The position numbers were made by a program, and so were the translations under genes. 64,000 nucleotides of DNA, from NCBI GenBank assembly GCA_049517415.1, contig JBEKSC010000004.1:82243-146242 (forward strand). The letters run 5' to 3'. The DNA comes from Candidatus Bathyarchaeia archaeon. GTDB taxonomy: Archaea > Thermoproteota > Bathyarchaeia > 40CM-2-53-6. How positions within the stretch are numbered: the first letter of the stretch is position 1; each line of letters begins with the position of its first letter. The notes below the pieces were generated by a model, which had not been told where the DNA came from, did not search any database, and saw only the letters and a list, made by a program, of their open reading frames with translations. Below are positions 2,932 through 36,766 of this stretch, in pieces.

Positions 2932-5265
2932 TCATGTTACCGCCGTGTATTTGTAGCCTGAACCAAATTTTCTTTGCCGAATAATCTTCTGCTCAAGTAT
3001 GCTTGCGACCGTTTGCCCATCCAACTGAACGACGGTTTGGTTCTGAAGTTGCATCGGGCCGGATCCTCCTTGGGAAGTTGGCGCTGCGGGTGGCGTTAGA
3101 CCTGCGCCTATGGCTGCCTGTTGCGCCGGCGTTAGAACCTCCTCGCCGCCGTGAAGCATGTAGATCCCCGTTGTGGGAACCATGCCGCCGAGTTGATAGC
3201 CTGGGCCTGTAAATTCTCCAAGTCCAGCCCCCGAAAGGCTCACGTTAATGCTGGTCATAATCTCGCTGGGGATTTTGTCGAGCCAACTGATGACGTTTTG
3301 AATAACGCTGATCGCATCATCCGCAATCGTGGTGACAGTCGTTTCTATCATCGACGGAATTGTAGAGATAACTGCGGTGACTTGGTCGAATCCAGTAACC
3401 GCATCCGAAACCACAGAACTAACAGTGATGTCCTTTGTGGACGGGATTGCCGCTAAACCTGAGGTAACGGCGCCGAACGCTGCCTGCGCCCCACTTTGAA
3501 TCTGCGACCATGTATTACTGAGAGCCGCAGCCACAGGCTGCACGGCCGTTGTTACTTTAGACCATAACGTTGAGCCAAGGTTAGTGTTGATTTGGTTTCC
3601 AATATTCAAAGTGGTAGTGGCCAGCGGCCCCATCCCGCTCGCTGCTGCGGTGGTCACGTCGTCCGTTCCAGTAGTCGTATCCTGGGTGGTCTTAGCCCAG
3701 AGGCCGTTCCACCAGTCGGTTAGATCTTGCCCCGCTGTCTGCGCGCCCTTCTGGATGCCCGTCGTGAAATTAGCCCAGTCCTGCTGGTACGTTTGAAGCC
3801 ACCCGGGGGCGTTTTGTTCTTGGTTCGCGCCAGTGAAAATTTGGTCGGTCGGCGGGTTTAGGTTCTTTTGACTGAAAGCTTCGGGCGGTGGCGTTACATT
3901 CGTAAGTGTGGCCTGGTATGTCGGGGCGTTGGATTGAGGAATGACTTGGGCCGTCTGTGCAGTCGCGACGCCCATTGGTATGATGCCTACACTTTGAAGC
4001 CACTTCACATCGGTCATGATGGCGTTTAAGAAATCCATGCCCGTGATCGCGAGGTCGAGTGCTACTTCAATTGCGCCTTTAGCAACCTCAGAGACGAACC
4101 CCATGAGTTCAGTCAAGTCGCCAGAAGCCACGAACCCCGAGAAGACGCCCATGAATTTACTCCACGTTGTCTGGACGCTTGGGTCGAGGGCTAGTGAAGT
4201 GATCCAGCTTGTGAATTTGGGCAGGTTGTCGTCAAGCCAACTGGTGAGGGATGTGAGTGTGGGGAGAAGCATGTCTCCAATTTGTATTTGGAGGTCGGCC
4301 CATTCGTTCGTGAGTTGCTGCTGCTTTCCCGCGTACGTGTCCAGCTGGGTTTGAGCTGCGCTCCCGAACTTATCGTTCAGCTGCGCCATAATGTCGTTGT
4401 AGTCTGACGCCTTAGCCGTTGCCCAGTCAAAGTTGATGCCCAGGGCGTGAGTTATGTCGTTCATCTGGGATGTGGTGATGGTGCCGGCTTTCCATGCGGT
4501 AACTAACTCGCCCGTAATCTGTGTCGCAGTCAGCTCTTTCCCGGTAGTAGTTGTGAGGCTGATTCCTGCCTGTTGAAGTATCTGTGTGAAGGGTTGTAGG
4601 GCGTTGACGCCGGCTTTCTGAATCGCAGCCGTTAAGTCGGCGGTTCCTTGTTTAAGATCTGCGTTCGCCTTCGTCGTAGTCTGAATAATAATTCCGTACC
4701 GGGAGAGGGTGGTTGTGACACCGTCGAATGCTTTCCCGACAAGGTTCACGGCAGTGGTTAGGTCAAGATTCTTCGCGGCGGACAGGTTAGTTGCGACGGT
4801 CAGCGCTTGTTCCGCTTGCGTTGCGTTCATGCCGTAGGTTGCAAGAAGTTGCAGCCCCTGAACGGCAGCGGTTTGGCTGACGGTTGAAACCTGCTCTAAG
4901 CCCTGGACGAAGTTCTGGATCTGTGGTTGCTGCGCAGCCCAGGCGGCGCCGGTTAGGTGGAGGGATTGTTGAAGCATCGCCCACGCTGACTGTGAAGCTG
5001 CCGCAGCGGCTACGGCTTGTTGTATGCCTTGGACGACTTCGCCGATTCCAATAACCGCCGCGCCTGTCCATCCTGCAACCGCGAAGCCTTGCATCATCTG
5101 GCCGACTTGCGCGAAGCCTGGGCCGAGCTGCTGCAACTCCATACCCATTAGGCCCATTGAAGCGCTAATCTTCCCCATCACACTACTTGCTTCGTGACGG
5201 CGCCGTTTTTGTTACGGCTCTACCGCTTGGATGGCGAAGACTATACTTCCGATGTTTGTACTCAA
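2932..5265 (-). CDS. Tape measure protein; proposed true start TTG 5265, interrupted by a 24-nt BHB intron (5196-5219)
   Basis: Ala/Gln/Thr-rich helical protein with TMP motifs (ATNLSAAKNLDLTTAVNLVGKAF, LSRYGI, FGSAAQTQLDTYAGK, C-terminal YMLHGGEEVL, VQLDGQTVA). Splicing gives MSTNIGSIVFAIQAVDEASSVMGKIS. Confidence 0.9.
5196..5219 (-). other. Candidate BHB micro-intron in viral mRNA
   Basis: mRNA CGGU-AG^A-GCCGU-AACAAAA-ACGGC-GCCG-UC^A: 4-bp central helix, two 3-nt bulges and an internal stem. Contains an in-frame UAA. Confidence 0.8.
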
Positions 5266-5330
5266 ATCACGTTCACCTTCGTGGATGGTGTTTCTTAAAA
5301 ATCGGAAGCCAGGTTCGTTGCAGGGATGGT
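5255..5330. repeat. Diverged direct repeat of 7095-7175 (3' end of GT chaperone + start of tape measure)
   Basis: tttgtactcaaatca.. tcaccttcgtggatg.tgttt.ttaaaaat present in both copies. Confidence 0.85.
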
Positions 5331-5607
5331 CCCATGTTGGCGCAAGCGCAAGAAGTCGAAAGGCTCCGCGAAGAAAACAGGGGACATAGAGAAATTTAAT
5401 CGGCTAGAAAAAGTTGCCAATGAGATAATGATAAAGCAAGAGGAACGAATCAAGAAACTAGAGACCGCATCAAGCCTCAAGGTCGAGCACCCAAGCCACG
5501 ATAAGACGCCCGTATCCAAGGACAAGAAGCCTTAATCAAACTCTAGGGACGATAATTGGCTTTGTCGTCCTCCAATTCTGAAGACCCTATCCCGTTTTTC
5601 GCCATTC

Positions 5608-6122
5608 TCATGTGTTTATGGGAAGCTTGAAGTACATGAATGGCTCGCGCCGACCTTTCGGTTGATTTTCAGCCAGTTTGAATCCGCAATGTTCGTAGAA
5701 AGGAATAGACGCTATCTTTGCATTTAGTATCACAAATTGACATGCAACTTCCTCACGTACTTTGGCAGCTGTGGCGATGGCATAGAGGCAGAGTATTCGG
5801 CCGACTCCCTTGCCTTGAAATTGCAGTTCAGTAGCAAGTCGTCCAATCATCAATGACGGATAGTATCGGTACGGCGTGTGCAACGGGCGGTGTTTTTCGT
5901 CAATGCTACTGACTTCGATGCTGCTCATACAAGACTCAAGAAGCCTGCAATTTGCGTGTTGAACAAGGCCAGATAAATGACAGCCGCGTGCTGAAGTTGC
6001 TGGTCTTTGGCTTGGTATCTTATGTAGTCATTAAGGTCTGAATTGCCGCAGTCAAAGAACCCTGTGTCGTCAGCTATGCTTAGCTTGCGTAGGTTGATTT
6101 CTTCGACGGAAAAGATGGACAA
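5608..6122 (-). pseudogene. GNAT acetyltransferase toxin, frameshifted near 5930
   Basis: FDCGNSDLNDYI (5925-6122) plus IGRLAT..FQGKGVGR..FYEHCGF (5608-5928); one base missing at the junction (real change or assembly error). Confidence 0.8.
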
Positions 6123-6131
6123 GAAAATAAG

Positions 6132-6260
6132 TTACTTCGGGAAGCGTTTCAAAGCCTCTTCGACTAATCTCTTCTGCGCTTCTGTCGGAGGCTCCGCTGC
6201 GTCTTTCAAGAACGCCTCTGCTTCCTTCCCCTTCAAGGTTGGGGGTGGATTTGGTAGCAT
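6132..6260 (-). CDS. Small antitoxin partner of the GNAT toxin (below the ORF-track cutoff)
   Basis: MLPNPPPTLKGKEAEAFLKDAAEPPTEAQKRLVEEALKRFPK, directly upstream of the GNAT gene. Confidence 0.65.
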   Translation of the reverse strand: MLPNPPPTLKGKEAEAFLKDAAEPPTEAQKRLVEEALKRFPK

Positions 6261-6356
6261 TTTCGTATCCTCCGTTGTCCATTATATCATCATGATGACG
6301 ATGCCATATAAGTCGTATGCTTGGAAATTAGAACCCTCTCGAACTTCGCTAAGCTG

Positions 6357-6569
6357 TCAAGTCGTAGTGGCAGCAGTCGTAGTGATAGTTACAGTGACAG
6401 ACCTCGTCGCAGTGTTAGTAACCGTAGCAGACTGCGTGTAAGTCACACTCCTAGTTGAAAGGGTCTTAGTGGAGGTAACACTCACAGTGCTCGAGGTAAC
6501 CGAATTGCTGGTCTGAGTGGCGCTCATGGTCCGAGTGTTAGTTACGGTCGCAGTACTAGTAACTGTGGC
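6357..6569 (-). pseudogene. 3' fragment of a Thr-rich secreted-protein gene
   Basis: ATVTSTATVTNTRTMSATQTS...VTITTTAATTT*; same composition as genes at 27876-29513; no N-terminus. Confidence 0.7.
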
Positions 6570-6710
6570 ACTCTTTCCAAAAGTACGTGCACAAGAGGAA
6601 GTTGAATGTAACGCTTAGTTCCATCCTTCTGGGTGAAAAGGTAGCTGAGATACTTGCAGACAATCTTGGTTCCCGCAGCTTGAGACATGGGAAGCCCAAG
6701 AAAGCTACCA

Positions 6711-6926
6711 CTACATGACCATTACAGGATCTGACGGAACTTTCATCACGAATGGGATCTTGTCTGGGTACTGGTGCTTGGCCTTTATGAAGACCTCTTT
6801 CGCGGAATTGCCTTCAGCGATGATCTTGTCGTCCACAACAGCAATCCAGCAATTCACATAGTCCCCTAGCTTATCTCCAATTGACATTACGTACTCTAGT
6901 TCTCCTTTCATGGGGAATTTCCTCAA
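6711..6926 (-). CDS. DUF5678-like small protein
   Basis: YVNCWIAVVDDKIIAEGNSAKEVFIKAK..YPDKIPFVMKVP; paralogue of 31141-31359. Confidence 0.75.
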   Translation of the reverse strand: MRKFPMKGELEYVMSIGDKLGDYVNCWIAVVDDKIIAEGNSAKEVFIKAKHQYPDKIPFVMKVPSDPVMVM

Positions 6927-7111
6927 GAGAGAGATGACCGGTGGTCATCACTCTATATTTATGTGTAGTCACCAAGGCACACTCTCAATGCATCCCACTT
7001 CGATCTGAACTCTAGCTTCAGAGCCCTGCACTCCTCAGCGTGCGATTCACTTAATCCAAAATCAGGGGACTGTACCAACCCCTCGCGGGAATTTTTGTAC
7101 TCAAATCATTT

Positions 7112-7647
7112 TCACCTTCGTGGATGCTGTTTTTTAAAAATGAGAAGCAGCCACTCTTGTTGTAAACGAGTGGGTTCCTCCATTCGTTCGGTTAACTTGT
7201 AACCGAACTCTGAGACTAGGACTTCGAGAGGGGCCGAGTAGACGGATCCTTCAGCGAATGAACTCAGTTTGGCTTTGAGGCTTTTGGGCCCGCGGACAAT
7301 CCGGATAGCTCAAACGAACGCAGAATAAGTTTCAAGCTTTCCATGGGCATCAAGGCTTTGGCCACGTCTGGCGCGCCTGTGGCGATGGCTGCGCCTTTCT
7401 GTAGAAACGCCAAGTTCGACGCCAACTTATCCTTGTTGCCGATATCCTTCAAGTCCACGTTTGTTGACTGTAGGAGCTCTGCCAGGTCCGCGTCGCTCAT
7501 TGGTGAGACCTCGAACTTGTGCAGTTCATTGTCGACGCCCTTGACCTCGACGGCTTCATGGTACTTGGTGCCCTTCGTGATGAGTTCGGCTAGTTTCTGG
7601 TTCGCCGCTCTGGCTTCCAAGATTGCCTCTCGTTTTTCTTGACTCAA
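7112..7647 (-). CDS. Tail assembly chaperone G (7264-7647) and GT via programmed -1 frameshift (to 7112)
   Basis: Lies between the tail tube and tape measure. Slippery C-CCA-AAA at 7288-7282, just before the G stop. The -1 frame stays open (KLSSFAEG...WLLLIFKKQHPRR*) up to the original TMP start. Confidence 0.8.
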
Positions 7648-7743
7648 ATCTTTTCACGCTCCTCGTTTTCTTCCCGTGAGCTTCCGCCTTTGTAGCTTGA
7701 TCGCGGAAGTGTCACCTTGAGGATTCAATGCACTTGCGTGGCA
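7562..7743. repeat. Diverged direct repeat; copies at 8642-8829 and (more diverged) ~9444-9548
   Basis: tacttggtgcccttcgtgatgagttcg...ttgactcaaatcttttcac...cacttgcgtggca in both main copies; corresponds to the 3' end of the 9458-9787 gene plus the 5' end of the chaperone gene. Confidence 0.92.
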
Positions 7744-7818
7744 GGCAGGAGGTAGACGCCAAGGTAGGATGATAAGTATTTATTGATAACAGTTATCAAT
7801 AATTAATATGGTGGGGGC

Positions 7819-8139
7819 ATGCCTTCAAGTTACAATCTGCCGGAGCTCGTCAAGAAGGAAATAAGTGCGTTGGTCAAGGCTGGATACTACTCAAGCAAGT
7901 CCGATGTCGTAAAGGACGCCCTCAGAACCTTTCTCTCTTCGAAGCGAAGCCTGAGACTAGCAGCCGCAGCAGAGTTGTATAAGGACGGCGAAGTCACGTT
8001 GGGCAAAGCCGCCGAGATTGCGGAGGTTGGGGTAGTTGAGTTCAAGGAAATGTTGGCAAATCTCGGTCATAAGAGGATGATCTCCGTAAACAGGAGCGAT
8101 GTCAGAAGGGCTGACGAAATTATGAAAAAGATGAGATAA
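7819..8139 (+). CDS. Antitoxin (RHH + UPF0175-like HTH)
   Basis: LVKAGYYSSKSDVVKDALR; LYKDGEVTLGKAAEIAEV. Confidence 0.85.
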   Translation: MPSSYNLPELVKKEISALVKAGYYSSKSDVVKDALRTFLSSKRSLRLAAAAELYKDGEVTLGKAAEIAEVGVVEFKEMLANLGHKRMISVNRSDVRRADEIMKKMR

Positions 8140-8621
8140 TGGACGTTGTCGTCGACACAGACATTCTCTCCACATTTGCCAAGGTCAACAAGCTGAAACT
8201 GCTCGTCAGACTTTTCCCAAAATCGCGAATCTTGGTCTGCCCAAGTGTTAATCTGGAAATTAAGAAAGGAGCAGAATTGGGGCTTCTGAGATACTCGCAT
8301 CCTCCCGATTTCATTTCAGTCAAGTTGGGCATGCGTGAAAAGGCGGCAGCCGGAGAAGTCAGAGAAGCTCTGAACTTGGGGTTAGGAGATGCTGAATGTT
8401 TGGCAGTCGCTCGAAATAGGAATTGCTTACTTCTCACCAACGACAGGAAAGCGGAGAGGGCTGCGGGTTCGCTTTCCATCCATTATCTCAATCTCCCGTT
8501 GCTGTTGAGAGAACTCTGGAGGAGCCACGTTATGACTAAATCGAGGGTGGCCAAACTTATCGACGAAATCGAGAGAAAGGATAACGTCGTGATCAAGAAT
8601 CGAGAATTTGTTTTCAAATGA
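8139..8621 (+). CDS. PIN-domain (VapC-like) toxin
   Basis: VVVDTDIL...LGLGDAECLAVA...LLTND. Confidence 0.9.
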   Translation: MDVVVDTDILSTFAKVNKLKLLVRLFPKSRILVCPSVNLEIKKGAELGLLRYSHPPDFISVKLGMREKAAAGEVREALNLGLGDAECLAVARNRNCLLLTNDRKAERAAGSLSIHYLNLPLLLRELWRSHVMTKSRVAKLIDEIERKDNVVIKNREFVFK

Positions 8622-8856
8622 ACCCCAAATCACAAGAACGATACTTGGTGCCCTTCGTGATGAGTTCGCCGAGTTTCTGGTTGGCCGCTCTGGCTTCCAA
8701 GATTGCTTCACGCTTTTCTTGACTCAAATCTTTTCACACTCCTTCTGTCTTCTGCCTATGAACTTCCGCCATTGTAGTTCAGTGATTGGGCAAGTGTAAC
8801 CTTGCAGGATCCGGTCCACTTGCGTGGCAATTGCTACCTAGAAGCAGCCGAACAAA

Positions 8857-9117
8857 TTACCTTTCATAAGCATCCTTCCGATGCTCAAATCTCAATAAGA
8901 TCAGCTTGTCACCCTCGACTTTGTAAATGAGTCTGAAAGGCTTCACGTAAATGCACCATTCGCCCTTCAGGCCATAACGCAGGTGCTTTCCGAAGTTTGG
9001 ATTATCGGCAACTTTGTCTATTTGCTTTTGCAGTTTTTCCTTCAGGCTCTTGTCCCTTATCCTTCTTACATCACGCTCGAATTTGTCGGTGGGTACGATG
9101 AACTTTATTTCTACCAT
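8857..9117 (-). CDS. RelE/ParE-family toxin
   Basis: TDKFERDVR...NPNFGKHLRYGLKG...FRLIYKV...FEHRKDAY. Confidence 0.88.
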   Translation of the reverse strand: MVEIKFIVPTDKFERDVRRIRDKSLKEKLQKQIDKVADNPNFGKHLRYGLKGEWCIYVKPFRLIYKVEGDKLILLRFEHRKDAYER

Positions 9118-9389
9118 TTCTTGAACTCTTTGAAGAAGGCTTTCCTCGAATAGATCTCATACCTTCCTTCTTCTATATCCTGCCATGCTTCCTCAATCAG
9201 CTTAAGTGTCCTCAAATCTTCGGGCTTCATTCCGGTCTCCAACTTCTTCAACACGATCATATCCTTCCTCGCCGTCACGGCGAACACGCTCCCCCTCTTG
9301 ATCCCAAGCTGTCTCCTAATGATGCTGGGTATCACTATCTGGCCTTTCGAACTTGCTTTTGTCAACTCAGGGATTCTTGATTCTTTCAT
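9111..9389 (-). CDS. AbrB/MazE-family antitoxin
   Basis: SSKGQIVIPSIIRRQLGIKRG. Confidence 0.9.
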   Translation of the reverse strand: MKESRIPELTKASSKGQIVIPSIIRRQLGIKRGSVFAVTARKDMIVLKKLETGMKPEDLRTLKLIEEAWQDIEEGRYEIYSRKAFFKEFKKW

Positions 9390-9457
9390 ACGAGTAAGAT
9401 ATGCTTACATCTATTTAAAGCGAGGATGAACGAACTGCCTGCGACGCTTTTCTAGAC

Positions 9458-9787
9458 TCAAGTCTTTTCGCTCCTTCTCGTTTTTCGATTGTGAATCTCA
9501 GTGAGTACACTCAGGTCGCCCTGAAGGGCTTTCTCCACCTGCGCCGCACGCAGAAGGAAGAGTGAATTGTTGCTGACGGTTTGGAACACTATGCGTCCCC
9601 CAGCCTCCTGAATCTGACTCCGGATCTTCTGCACGTCGCCAAGTCTGCAGCTCATGACGACGCCAAAGGTGATGGGGAATTGTAGGTCGGGGCTATCGCT
9701 AGGCTGTGTTGCGTCCGGAAAAAGAGTAGGGGAGTTATGTTCTTGCTTGCTTAATTCTTTGTAACTGCGGTTCTCCATTTTCTCCAT
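9458..9787 (-). CDS. Hypothetical viral protein between tail tube and chaperone
   Basis: 109 aa; diverged copies of its C-terminus occur at ~8730-8829 and ~7650-7743. Confidence 0.65.
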   Translation of the reverse strand: MEKMENRSYKELSKQEHNSPTLFPDATQPSDSPDLQFPITFGVVMSCRLGDVQKIRSQIQEAGGRIVFQTVSNNSLFLLRAAQVEKALQGDLSVLTEIHNRKTRRSEKT

Positions 9788-10279: not shown

Positions 10280-10314
10280 GCTCCGTCAGGTCTCAATGAG
10301 ACTGTGACCAGAAA

Positions 10315-10666
10315 CTACTGGAACGCCCAGAGAATCCCGTCCCGAACAAGGGACAATAACTTCGCCTGCCCCTCTTCTGCCGAAGGGCGAATGAACGGCT
10401 CCGCGGCCATTTTCCGCGTGCCACATTCCACGAAAAAAGGTGTAGTCGGCATCCGCTCCTAATTCCAGCTGCATCCCGTCCACCGTGTGGTAGATGCTGC
10501 TTTGCAGATGGCCCGTTCTTACCGGGACCAGCTGCCTCGAGTGAGCTTCCATATCGGTGCCGGCCTCCTCAAGGGCGGTAGCGATCGCTTTCTGAATCTC
10601 GGCTTTCGCGGCGAGAAGCTTAGCCGTAACCGTATCCGACACAATCTGGATGCTGAAGCCTGGCAA
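10315..10666 (-). CDS. HK97 gp10-like tail/neck component with a +1 frameshift in a T6 run (10433-10438)
   Basis: VPVRTGHLQSSI...ADY; removing one T gives FFVECGTRKMAAEPFIRPS, the family's C-terminal motif, with a stop at 10315. Confidence 0.85.

Positions 10667-36571: not shown

Positions 36572-36766
<195 letters not shown>

Follow-up and report, generated by a model that had tools for sequence, protein, structure and literature searches.

A predicted 24-nt BHB-type micro-intron with an in-frame stop codon in the tape-measure gene of a bathyarchaeal provirus

The locus described here raises a simple question: why should a provirus tape-measure gene whose frame is otherwise open carry a stop codon soon after its start? 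The gene lies in a stretch of 64,000 nt (hereafter the window) of a Bathyarchaeia MAG from a peat archaeon, and the parts of the tape-measure locus described below are on the minus strand. A TTG codon at 5265-5263, 7 nt 3' of a Shine-Dalgarno-like GAAGGTGA (5273..5280), opens a frame that by sequence reading is ended by TAA 5214-5212. Past the interruption the frame is open through GTG 5181 and ATG 5178 to a stop at 2932, and the ORF list shows a 749-aa ORF at 2932..5181. The identity of the product is indicated by matches to four tape-measure families of PHROGs (E 1.9e-11 to 1.1e-7), the Pfam match to PhageMin_Tail being weak, and by the position of the gene between a chaperone-like pair of frames and distal tail genes, with the downstream ORF 843-2930 matching Prophage_tail. 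The pair (7115..7647) consists of ORF 7264-7647 and the overlapping frame 7115-7543, which are 81% and 57% identical to a pair of overlapping frames located just 5' of the tape-measure gene in the related genome G043; it is this position that points to a role of the pair as tail-assembly chaperones.

The relatives of the gene read straight through the interruption. In the homologues the 23 upstream residues are a conserved N-terminus with its own SD and TTG, and purine-rich boxes like that of the window are found 5' of the TTG in the relatives too. All eight related provirus DNA sequences (G043, G048, L009/L021, L010/L022, L013, L023, L024/25 and L026/27) pass the site without the 24 nt, and so do 25 of 29 homologous proteins, the other four being the window's own protein in three versions and P0031, a close variant whose start was called at that same Met downstream. 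In a blastn alignment with L027 the insert appears as 24 gaps. Excision of 5219-5196 gives the reading shared by the eight DNA sequences and the 25 proteins; the relatives have A-[I/V]-D-E-A-S at this point, in agreement with the A-x-D-x-A-S start that the initial annotation had expected upon removal of 24 nt, and the TTG frame, the in-frame stop and the extent of the insert which it had proposed are confirmed to the base. No homologue with a called N-terminus begins at the GTG/ATG further downstream, and in no homologue are the 24 nt part of the coding sequence. Among 401 Bathyarchaeia genomes ten match the tape-measure N-terminus, and stops within the matched segment occur only in the window (one TAA) and in G048 (two TAG). 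The insert is no product of misassembly: in four public DNA runs (2014-2020), the source sample perhaps among them, one contig each spans 4900-5600 with neither a difference nor a gap, and all four keep the insertion unchanged. Roughly 20 DNA runs contain the locus, and no RNA run is listed for 2932-8000.

The RNA across the insert can fold in the manner of a relaxed BHB. The alignments permit just two placements of the insert, 5219-5196 and the equivalent 5218-5195, and the BHB cut rule picks the former (5196..5219) as the predicted micro-intron. A 4-bp central helix, with three G-C pairs and one G-U, pairs an exon strand (5222..5225) with an intron strand (5198..5201). The exon strand is followed by the 5' bulge 5221-5219, with the cut between 5220 and 5219, and the intron strand by the 3' bulge or loop 5197-5195, with the cut between 5196 and 5195. 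The inner hairpin (5202..5218) has a 5-bp stem, 5218-5214/5206-5202, and a 7-nt loop, 5213-5207, and the outer helix comes down to G5226:C5194 alone. A geometry check (central 4/4, inner 5, loop 7, outer 1) reproduced the helices, bulges, loop and 1-bp outer helix claimed at the outset. The minimum free energy fold has the central and inner helices and the 5' bulge, with pair probabilities of 0.96-1.0 (0.97-1.0 for the central helix); in the partition function the outer pair has probability 0 and the 3-nt stretch on the 3' side is unpaired. Since the outer helix is not predicted to form, the 3' cut site is placed in a loop, which makes the motif a relaxed, bulge-helix-loop-like one that retains from the BHB a 4-bp central helix and two 3-nt bulges on opposite strands. 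The fold of the 81-nt segment has z = -2.61, with two of 200 shuffles folding as well, and 355 of 5,288,662 genome positions (6.7e-5) fit the motif at exactly 24 nt of intron length, an inner stem of at least 5 and an outer helix of at least 1. A search with Rfam gave nothing at gathering score in the window, and only five chance-level matches in 4800-5700.

The sister provirus G048 carries a different insert of 21 nt in the same gene, between codons 9 and 10, six codons upstream of the window's site. Its minimum free energy fold comprises the whole helix-bulge-helix-bulge-helix, at pair probabilities of 0.6-0.99, rule-based excision restores both the frame and the conserved I-V-F-A-I-Q reading, and the chance of a fit of this type is 2.7e-5. 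Judged from sequence and predicted fold, the G048 insert counts as a second, independent case. Another two breaks of frame in the tape-measure gene of G048 were also considered as introns and rejected: they are single-base shifts, which may be assembly errors.

The host appears equipped to process such RNAs. The EndA domain PF01974 is found in two genes, in the regions G000:C10:75178-75423 and C2:42070-42309 (79.5 and 56.5 bits; ORFs of 190 and 187 aa), RtcB (PF01139) in one gene with 572.9 bits, and 23 of the 28 tRNAs called by ARAGORN contain introns; the multi-intron tRNA-Leu was not detected by ARAGORN or Rfam. The initial annotation had likened the layout of the insert to that of the 24-nt intron of the window's tRNA-Leu (36695-36718, plus strand), and the two do share the pattern 1+5+7+5+4+2, though only 3/4 pairs form in the central helix of the tRNA intron. 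As a control, tRNA introns located through ARAGORN coordinates gave a clean BHB in two of eight tRNAs with a narrow search window, and cbf5 was used instead. The host cbf5 gene contains a 19-nt BHB intron in its catalytic Asp codon (G000:C24:34228-34246), conserved in G043 and G048, and the cut rule applied to the tape-measure insert restores here the catalytic G-T-L-D-P motif. With central 4/4, inner 3 and outer 1, the geometry of the cbf5 intron is no better than that of the tape-measure insert. The host must splice an equally relaxed intron from its own essential cbf5 mRNA, and cutting is therefore the default expectation for the tape-measure insert as well, if its RNA is made.

On these grounds we propose, with a probability of roughly 0.75, that the 24 nt are an archaeal protein-spliced BHB (tRNA-type) micro-intron in codon 16 of the tape-measure gene, an Asp codon split after its G. 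Exon 1 (5220..5265) would run from the TTG through 15 codons to the G that opens the Asp codon, and exon 2 would be 2932..5195; the two together amount to 769 codons and a stop, and when joined in silico they give 770 codons including the one terminal stop. The gene would be transcribed with the insert included, and the RNA would fold so that the 4-bp helix between exon 1 and the 3' part of the intron lies between two 3-nt unpaired stretches. The host endonuclease, whose two paralogous subunits suggest the broad-specificity (alpha-beta)2 kind, would cut after the second nucleotide of each stretch, and RtcB would join the exons into an mRNA for the full 769-aa protein with its conserved N-terminus. 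From unspliced RNA one would expect a peptide of 17 residues and, at most, a protein from GTG 5181 that is truncated at its N-terminus; without splicing GTG 5181/ATG 5178 (5178..5183) is the only possible start. That the tape-measure RNA is in fact cut and ligated is what we infer from these features.

The alternative that survives best, although we consider it unlikely, is that the BHB-shaped insert is not spliced, or that its splicing is irrelevant, and that it is a lesion in a decaying provirus whose tape-measure gene is either dead or makes a protein from GTG 5181 lacking the 23 conserved residues. The state of the provirus speaks for this view. Its HK97-gp10-like gene carries a frameshift due to a 1-nt insertion, fixed in 67 of 67 contigs on record, and three toxin-antitoxin-type cassettes are inserted in the tail module. 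The provirus thus looks at least partly defective, and with the frameshift and the cassette insertions nothing requires a functional tape-measure gene. The restriction of the intron to one lineage and the loose structure of its 3' cut site point the same way. Against the lesion stand an insert geometry at least equal to that of the cbf5 intron, the 749 other codons of the gene, which are all open, and the preservation of the TTG, SD box and exon 1, while GTG 5181 has no SD-like box before it. In sequence terms exon 1 and its SD box are intact: the exon 1 amino acids are identical in the window and G048, with nine of 15 codons differing synonymously (read by eye), and the comparison of exon 1 with L027 gives pS 0.62 and pN 0.06. 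Relative to the closest intron-less relative, codons 2-23 (pS 0.68, pN 0.10) are similar to the rest of the gene (codons 24-330: pS 0.52, pN 0.11). This signal of purifying selection could predate a recent insertion. The same frameshift also weakens the suggestion that host splicing might act as a gate on tail assembly; a regulatory role of the insert as a "gate" for expression is unsupported.

We attach little probability to a third explanation, by which the insert is a scar or recognition hairpin left by cassette insertion at the same end of the gene and not an intron. It starts from a shared feature: both the window and the G048 genes have a foreign cassette right after tape-measure codon 4, and L027, the closest relative, has neither cassette nor insert. 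In the window, copies of a 58-nt direct repeat flank an inserted 1.8-kb cassette (GNAT, DUF5678), and copy B (5252..5309), 88% identical to 7091-7148, spans the promoter/SD region and the first tape-measure codons. However, the inserts are found within the gene and past the repeat or junction, at 32 nt in the window and about 15 nt in G048; the two are unlike in sequence and position and have no terminal repeats; the other cassette junctions of the window (7562-7663, 8642-8743 and 9444-9469) show no such hairpin; and in L022 the upstream region is non-canonical and no insert is present. Exon pairing in BHB register would also not be expected to arise twice from a scar.

Still less probable is a chance hairpin upstream of a true start at GTG 5181/ATG 5178, in a frame that does not code. 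Gene callers do place the start there (P0020 and P0030 begin 3' of the insert), and 35,959 BHB-like sites can be counted in the genome with loose criteria; but the 23 upstream residues are conserved in the homologues, so that this reading fails the homologue comparison, the window keeps those residues broken by exactly 24 nt alone, and the fit at 6.7e-5 is joined by an independent one at 2.7e-5. Translational recoding can practically be set aside: in known bypass sites a stable hairpin comes after a stop codon, a layout that the insert resembles, yet for a ribosome hop over the 24 nt (of the T4 gene 60 type) the take-off and landing codons do not match in a way that brings back the frame (the CCG before TAA recurs at 5200-5198, and GUA has a near match, GUC, at 5198-5196, but both land out of frame), and read-through of the TAA would add eight residues where the homologues have one Asp.

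If the insert is a micro-intron, where did it come from? Neither the 58 other genomes of the family, at up to 3 mismatches, nor the viral contigs, by exact match, contain the 24-nt sequence; the viral contigs yielded no closer relatives of the window's protein either, and within the host genome no 24-mer other than the insert itself comes within 5 mismatches. From these comparisons the insert is to all appearances a recent gain, private to this lineage, and since a single clonal lineage carries it, neither conservation nor covariation can show that it is maintained. The initial annotation had considered spread from tRNA introns. No tRNA-intron relative of the sequence occurs in the host genome within those 5 mismatches, and the closest match is an mRNA intron, that of cbf5: across a span of 13 bases, the last three of the exon and the first ten of the intron, 12 agree with the cbf5 intron of G043 and 10 with that of the host itself. 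Leaving cbf5 aside, 12/13 is the top score in a set of 244,561 BHB-like sites, and just five others reach 11. Each of the two introns interrupts an Asp codon behind its G and places a UAA two codons into the unspliced reading. To align the 3' half with the cbf5 intron a 5-nt gap is required, in an element that is itself very short. The cbf5-like 5' motif AGNCNTAAC is not enriched in the genome (315 found, about 323 expected), and the eight next-best cbf5-like sites proved to be ordinary coding or non-coding sequence, not interrupted genes. On balance we lean slightly towards the view that the insert arose when a cbf5-type intron was copied ectopically into a site of similar appearance (NUA-G^A in an Asp codon).

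A further scan of the genome looked for BHB sites at which excision would join two open frames into one. At no threshold was there an excess of the true geometry over the four decoys (for example, with at least 50 codons on both sides, 616 loci for the true geometry and 649 and 633 for decoys, and with at least 100 codons 74 against 81 and 73), a result of low power that is compatible with a few real cases. Those inspected at the top of the 43 strictest candidates resemble the usual boundaries between genes, the supposed "intron" containing a stop codon, an SD box and a start. An idea of escape from CRISPR was followed separately by searching the host genome with eleven 30-mers at up to 7 mismatches: no spacer-like match to the exon-exon junction was found, only partial self hits. 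A wider proposal combines two statements, that BHB introns move between mRNAs, as in a cbf5 copy reaching a provirus gene where NUA-G^A in an Asp codon imitates the cbf5 exon junction, and that viruses of intron-rich Bathyarchaeia repeatedly gain advantageous micro-introns in the 5' part of the tape-measure gene; we hold it to be doubtful. Were it true, the benefit might be a switch tying tail production to the splicing enzymes of the host, or else the disruption of a target sequence at the DNA level with the protein kept.

These results can be viewed in the light of known cases of tRNA-type splicing outside tRNA. The nearest is the BHB intron of cbf5 pre-mRNA in Crenarchaeota, removed by the tRNA-splicing endonuclease and ligase (Watanabe 2002; Yokobori 2009, PMC2738675). 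It too is a short BHB intron within protein-coding sequence, and the cbf5 intron of this host, like the tape-measure insert, has a split Asp codon, an AG|A 5' bulge and an early UAA if unspliced. Yet cbf5 is an essential host gene whereas the tape-measure gene is provirus-borne; the cbf5 intron here is 19 nt long and frame-shifting, the tape-measure intron 24 nt and in-frame; and the former is conserved across a genus, while the latter is private to a lineage and its splicing predicted. In Haloferax volcanii the HVO_1309 mRNA has a BHB intron described as shown in vivo and in vitro (PMC7714728), again a target of the archaeal splicing endonuclease that is an mRNA and neither tRNA nor rRNA; that intron is in the untranslated leader, whereas the predicted one of the tape-measure gene is inside the reading frame. 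Multi-intron tRNA genes of Thermoproteales provide the model of intron transposition (Fujishima 2010, as described in PMC4090602): their short introns are alike in size class, in the layout also seen in the window's tRNA-Leu, in the enzymes and in the idea of a recent gain by transposition of an existing intron, but the target here is an mRNA, and the genome has no tRNA intron related in sequence within 5 mismatches over the 24 nt.

Among archaeal viruses, genes of the rudivirus SIRV1 contain 12-bp indels referred to as "putative 12-bp introns" (Peng 2004, via PMC2738675 and PMC4390879). They are likewise short insertions in viral ORFs suspected to be intron-like, and 24 is a multiple of 12; as those two sources present them, however, no BHB shape or splicing is demonstrated and the indels may simply be translated, whereas the tape-measure insert has a stop and an explicit BHB geometry, and the 21 nt of G048 are not a multiple of 12. 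The unconventional splicing of HAC1 and XBP1 mRNA in eukaryotes, mentioned in PMC4090602, also removes a small mRNA intron by an endonuclease and a tRNA ligase (RtcB in animals) and changes the protein; it differs in relying on Ire1, in the recognition of stem-loops instead of a BHB and in being regulated by stress.

In the literature consulted (PMC7714728, PMC2738675) no archaeal protein-coding sequence other than cbf5 is described as having a tRNA-type intron, and the spread of such introns is presented as an open question in PMC4090602. The present locus offers a second gene family with such a predicted intron, in a virus-derived gene, together with two independent, datable gains for which intron-less relatives are known, and with the host cbf5 intron as a likely donor. 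For annotation, it suggests that gene callers silently truncate genes of this kind at the next start codon. With a second family, two gains and a likely donor, the transposition of tRNA-type introns becomes testable with two defined sequences.

The tape-measure gene of the provirus starts on the reverse strand at TTG 5265, behind an SD-like box (GAAGGTGA, 5280-5273, -). From this TTG the frame reads 15 codons into an in-frame TAA at 5214-5212; beyond it the frame is open via GTG 5181 and ATG 5178 up to the stop at 2932 (-), and the 749 aa ORF that begins at GTG 5181 has hits in four tape-measure families of PHROGs (E 1.9e-11 to 1.1e-7). The gene is flanked by a chaperone-like gene pair on one side and a Prophage_tail-like gene on the other, and the provirus also has HK97-type capsid and portal genes. 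With respect to related tape-measure 5' ends the window has a surplus of exactly 24 bases, for which the alignment permits two equivalent placements, 5219-5196 or 5218-5195 (-). The initial annotation had read this surplus as a bulge-helix-bulge (BHB) micro-intron, and its coordinates for insert and frame all proved correct on recheck. The window is contig 4 of the host genome (2.65 Mb, 59 contigs), and the titles of related contigs are those of Bathyarchaeia or Bathyarchaeota MAGs. The stretch is present in twenty public runs, all of DNA, from peat, wetland and soil. For four runs (2014-2020), among which the source sample may be counted, one contig per run was compared over 4900-5600 and showed zero differences, which rules out an assembly artefact as the origin of the insert.

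Eight related tape-measure 5' ends were compared as DNA (the sister genomes G043 and G048, and the sequences L009/L021, L010/L022, L013, L023, L024/25 and L026/27). Each has a TTG start with a similar SD box ahead and reads A-[I/V]-D-E-A-S-G-V-M-G-K unbroken at the window's insert site, so that all eight lack the 24 nt, just as had been anticipated. Among the homologous proteins fetched, 25 of 29 continue across the site, the remaining four being three versions of the protein of the window itself plus P0031, a close variant whose call begins at the same downstream Met. The N-terminal profile was matched in 10 of 401 sampled Bathyarchaeia genomes, with internal stops only in the window (one TAA) and in G048 (two TAG). 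In comparison with L027, the closest relative without the intron, codons 2-23 give pS 0.68 and pN 0.10, and codons 24-330 give pS 0.52 and pN 0.11; the exon 1 protein is the same as that of G048 despite differences in 9 of 15 codons. Such substitution patterns show long purifying selection on the N-terminus, a signal that cannot date the insertion. The intron sequence has no other occurrence in 59 family genomes or viral contigs. The tape-measure intron is a recent gain.

If both 3-nt bulges are cut behind their second nucleotide (the EndA rule), the insert has a central helix with 4/4 pairs, an inner stem of 5 bp, a loop of 7 and an outer helix of 1 bp. With 110 to 330 nt of context, the partition function assigns the central and inner helices a probability of 0.96-1.0; the lone outer pair does not form in the prediction, in agreement with the caveat raised at the outset about a weak outer helix, and the 3' cut site is thus placed in a loop. 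Positions that fit as well at the exact length and quality number 355 of 5.29 million in the genome (6.7e-5); because two placements are allowed, the chance of a random insert fitting in register is ~1e-4. The 24 nt are a genuine insert and belong to the archaeal BHB-intron type. Across the genome, BHB sites that join open frames on removal were no more frequent than sites of decoy geometries.

The host genome encodes two EndA-domain proteins (190 and 187 aa) and one RtcB ligase; according to PMC5829648, this two-EndA make-up is that of the broad-specificity (alpha-beta)2 enzyme. ARAGORN in intron mode places introns in 23 of 28 tRNA calls. In the multi-intron tRNA-Leu(CAG) of the window (36572-36766, +), the 24-nt intron at 36695-36718 has the same 1+5+7+5+4+2 layout as the tape-measure intron, a match that the initial annotation had rightly noted; further introns lie in the D-arm and the anticodon stem. 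This tRNA is missed or misread by ARAGORN, in default and intron mode, and by Rfam. The host cbf5 gene serves as a positive control: a 19-nt BHB intron in its catalytic Asp codon (G000:C24:34228-34246, on host contig 24; L040:1369-1387) divides it over two frames, and the cut rule gives back G-T-L-D-P-K-V-T-G. Its geometry (central 4/4, inner 3, outer 1) is no better than that of the tape-measure intron, and G043 and G048 conserve it in the matching position (L043 and L044, 1700-1718) with the small inner stem altered. Hence the cell must already be splicing one relaxed mRNA micro-intron of this sort. The host tRNA-splicing machinery is predicted, very probably, to excise the tape-measure intron as well, provided that the gene is transcribed.

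In G048 the A-V-D-E-A-S site is uninterrupted, and a different insert of 21 nt with two TAG codons lies between codons 9 and 10. Its MFE fold is a complete helix-bulge-helix-bulge-helix (4-bp central helix, two 3-nt bulges, 5-bp inner stem, outer helix of 2+5 bp) with pair probabilities of 0.6-0.99; the cut by rule coincides with one of three placements permitted by the alignment, and the chance frequency of such a fit is 2.7e-5. The two inserts share no common sequence, and that of G048 is a second, independent case. The same G048 gene has two further frame breaks, single-base shifts without an insert (L008 3480-3540 and 4421-4478), which could be assembly errors or decay.

As to origin, a tRNA-intron relative was sought and not found; PMC4090602 describes the mechanism of tRNA intron transposition as unknown. 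The cbf5 intron is a likely donor on sequence likeness, and may have been copied. Over the last 3 exon bases and the 10 intron bases that follow, the tape-measure site is identical to the G043 cbf5 intron at 12/13 positions, and to those of the host and of G048 at 10/13 (counted from printed strings). Among 244,561 BHB-like genomic sites scored in this way against the three cbf5 variants, the tape-measure site ranked first after cbf5 itself, and only 5 others reached a score of 11; the common motif is not enriched genome-wide, and none of the next-best sites checked is an interrupted gene. Each of the two introns interrupts an Asp codon behind its G, with a NUA codon preceding, and each, if unspliced, leads to a UAA stop two codons in. 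In the central helices the two outer pairs are identical; the two middle ones are different on either strand, as relocation into a new exon would demand. The 3' halves can be aligned only with a 5-nt gap, and for this reason we keep the probability of common descent at about 55%.

It had also been proposed that splicing acts as a host-range or regulatory gate on tail assembly; this idea is without support in a provirus with the following lesions. The HK97-gp10-like gene (10286-10666, -) has 1 nt inserted near 10410-10425 (a T following an ATG), which puts it out of frame with G043, G048 and L027; 67 contigs of several sources all have the shifted product (126 aa, various start calls) as the sole form. 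The tail module holds three foreign cassettes, each between copies of a duplicated gene start: GNAT + DUF5678 (about 5310-7090; direct repeat 5252-5309 / 7091-7148, 58 nt at 88%), a PIN + UPF0175/RHH pair (7664-8641; direct repeat 7562-7663 / 8642-8743, 102 nt at 93%) and a MazE/AbrB-like gene (9111-9389; third repeat copy 9444-9469, 26 nt). In each repeat the next gene's SD box and first codons are duplicated, which leaves the ends of both neighbours intact; L027 has the MazE-like cassette alone. Given the frameshift and the cassettes, the provirus may no longer make virions. G048 carries a cassette of ~2.7 kb (G048:C18, about 4715-7441; L019) after codon 4 of its tape-measure gene, with a truncated gene-start copy upstream, at the identical insertion point and with different cargo; on inspection by eye, its ORF 6505-6822 resembles a Vsr-type endonuclease. 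Upstream of the window's tape-measure gene, two overlapping frames at 7115-7647 (-), conserved in G043 (81% and 57% identity), show the sequence pattern of a tail-assembly chaperone made via programmed frameshifting. A second short match to the tape-measure C-terminal end, on a different host contig (G000:C29:32389-32484, L002; 66% over 32 residues), is perhaps a remnant of another provirus.

In the literature available without subscription, a search for viral structural genes with a BHB intron gave no earlier description. For an archaeal virus, PMC2738675 mentions putative 12-bp introns (Peng 2004) without demonstrated splicing, which PMC4390879 terms 12-bp indels of rudiviruses and lipothrixviruses. 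According to PMC7714728, BHB introns outside tRNA and rRNA are confined to the cbf5 mRNA and the HVO_1309 5' UTR.
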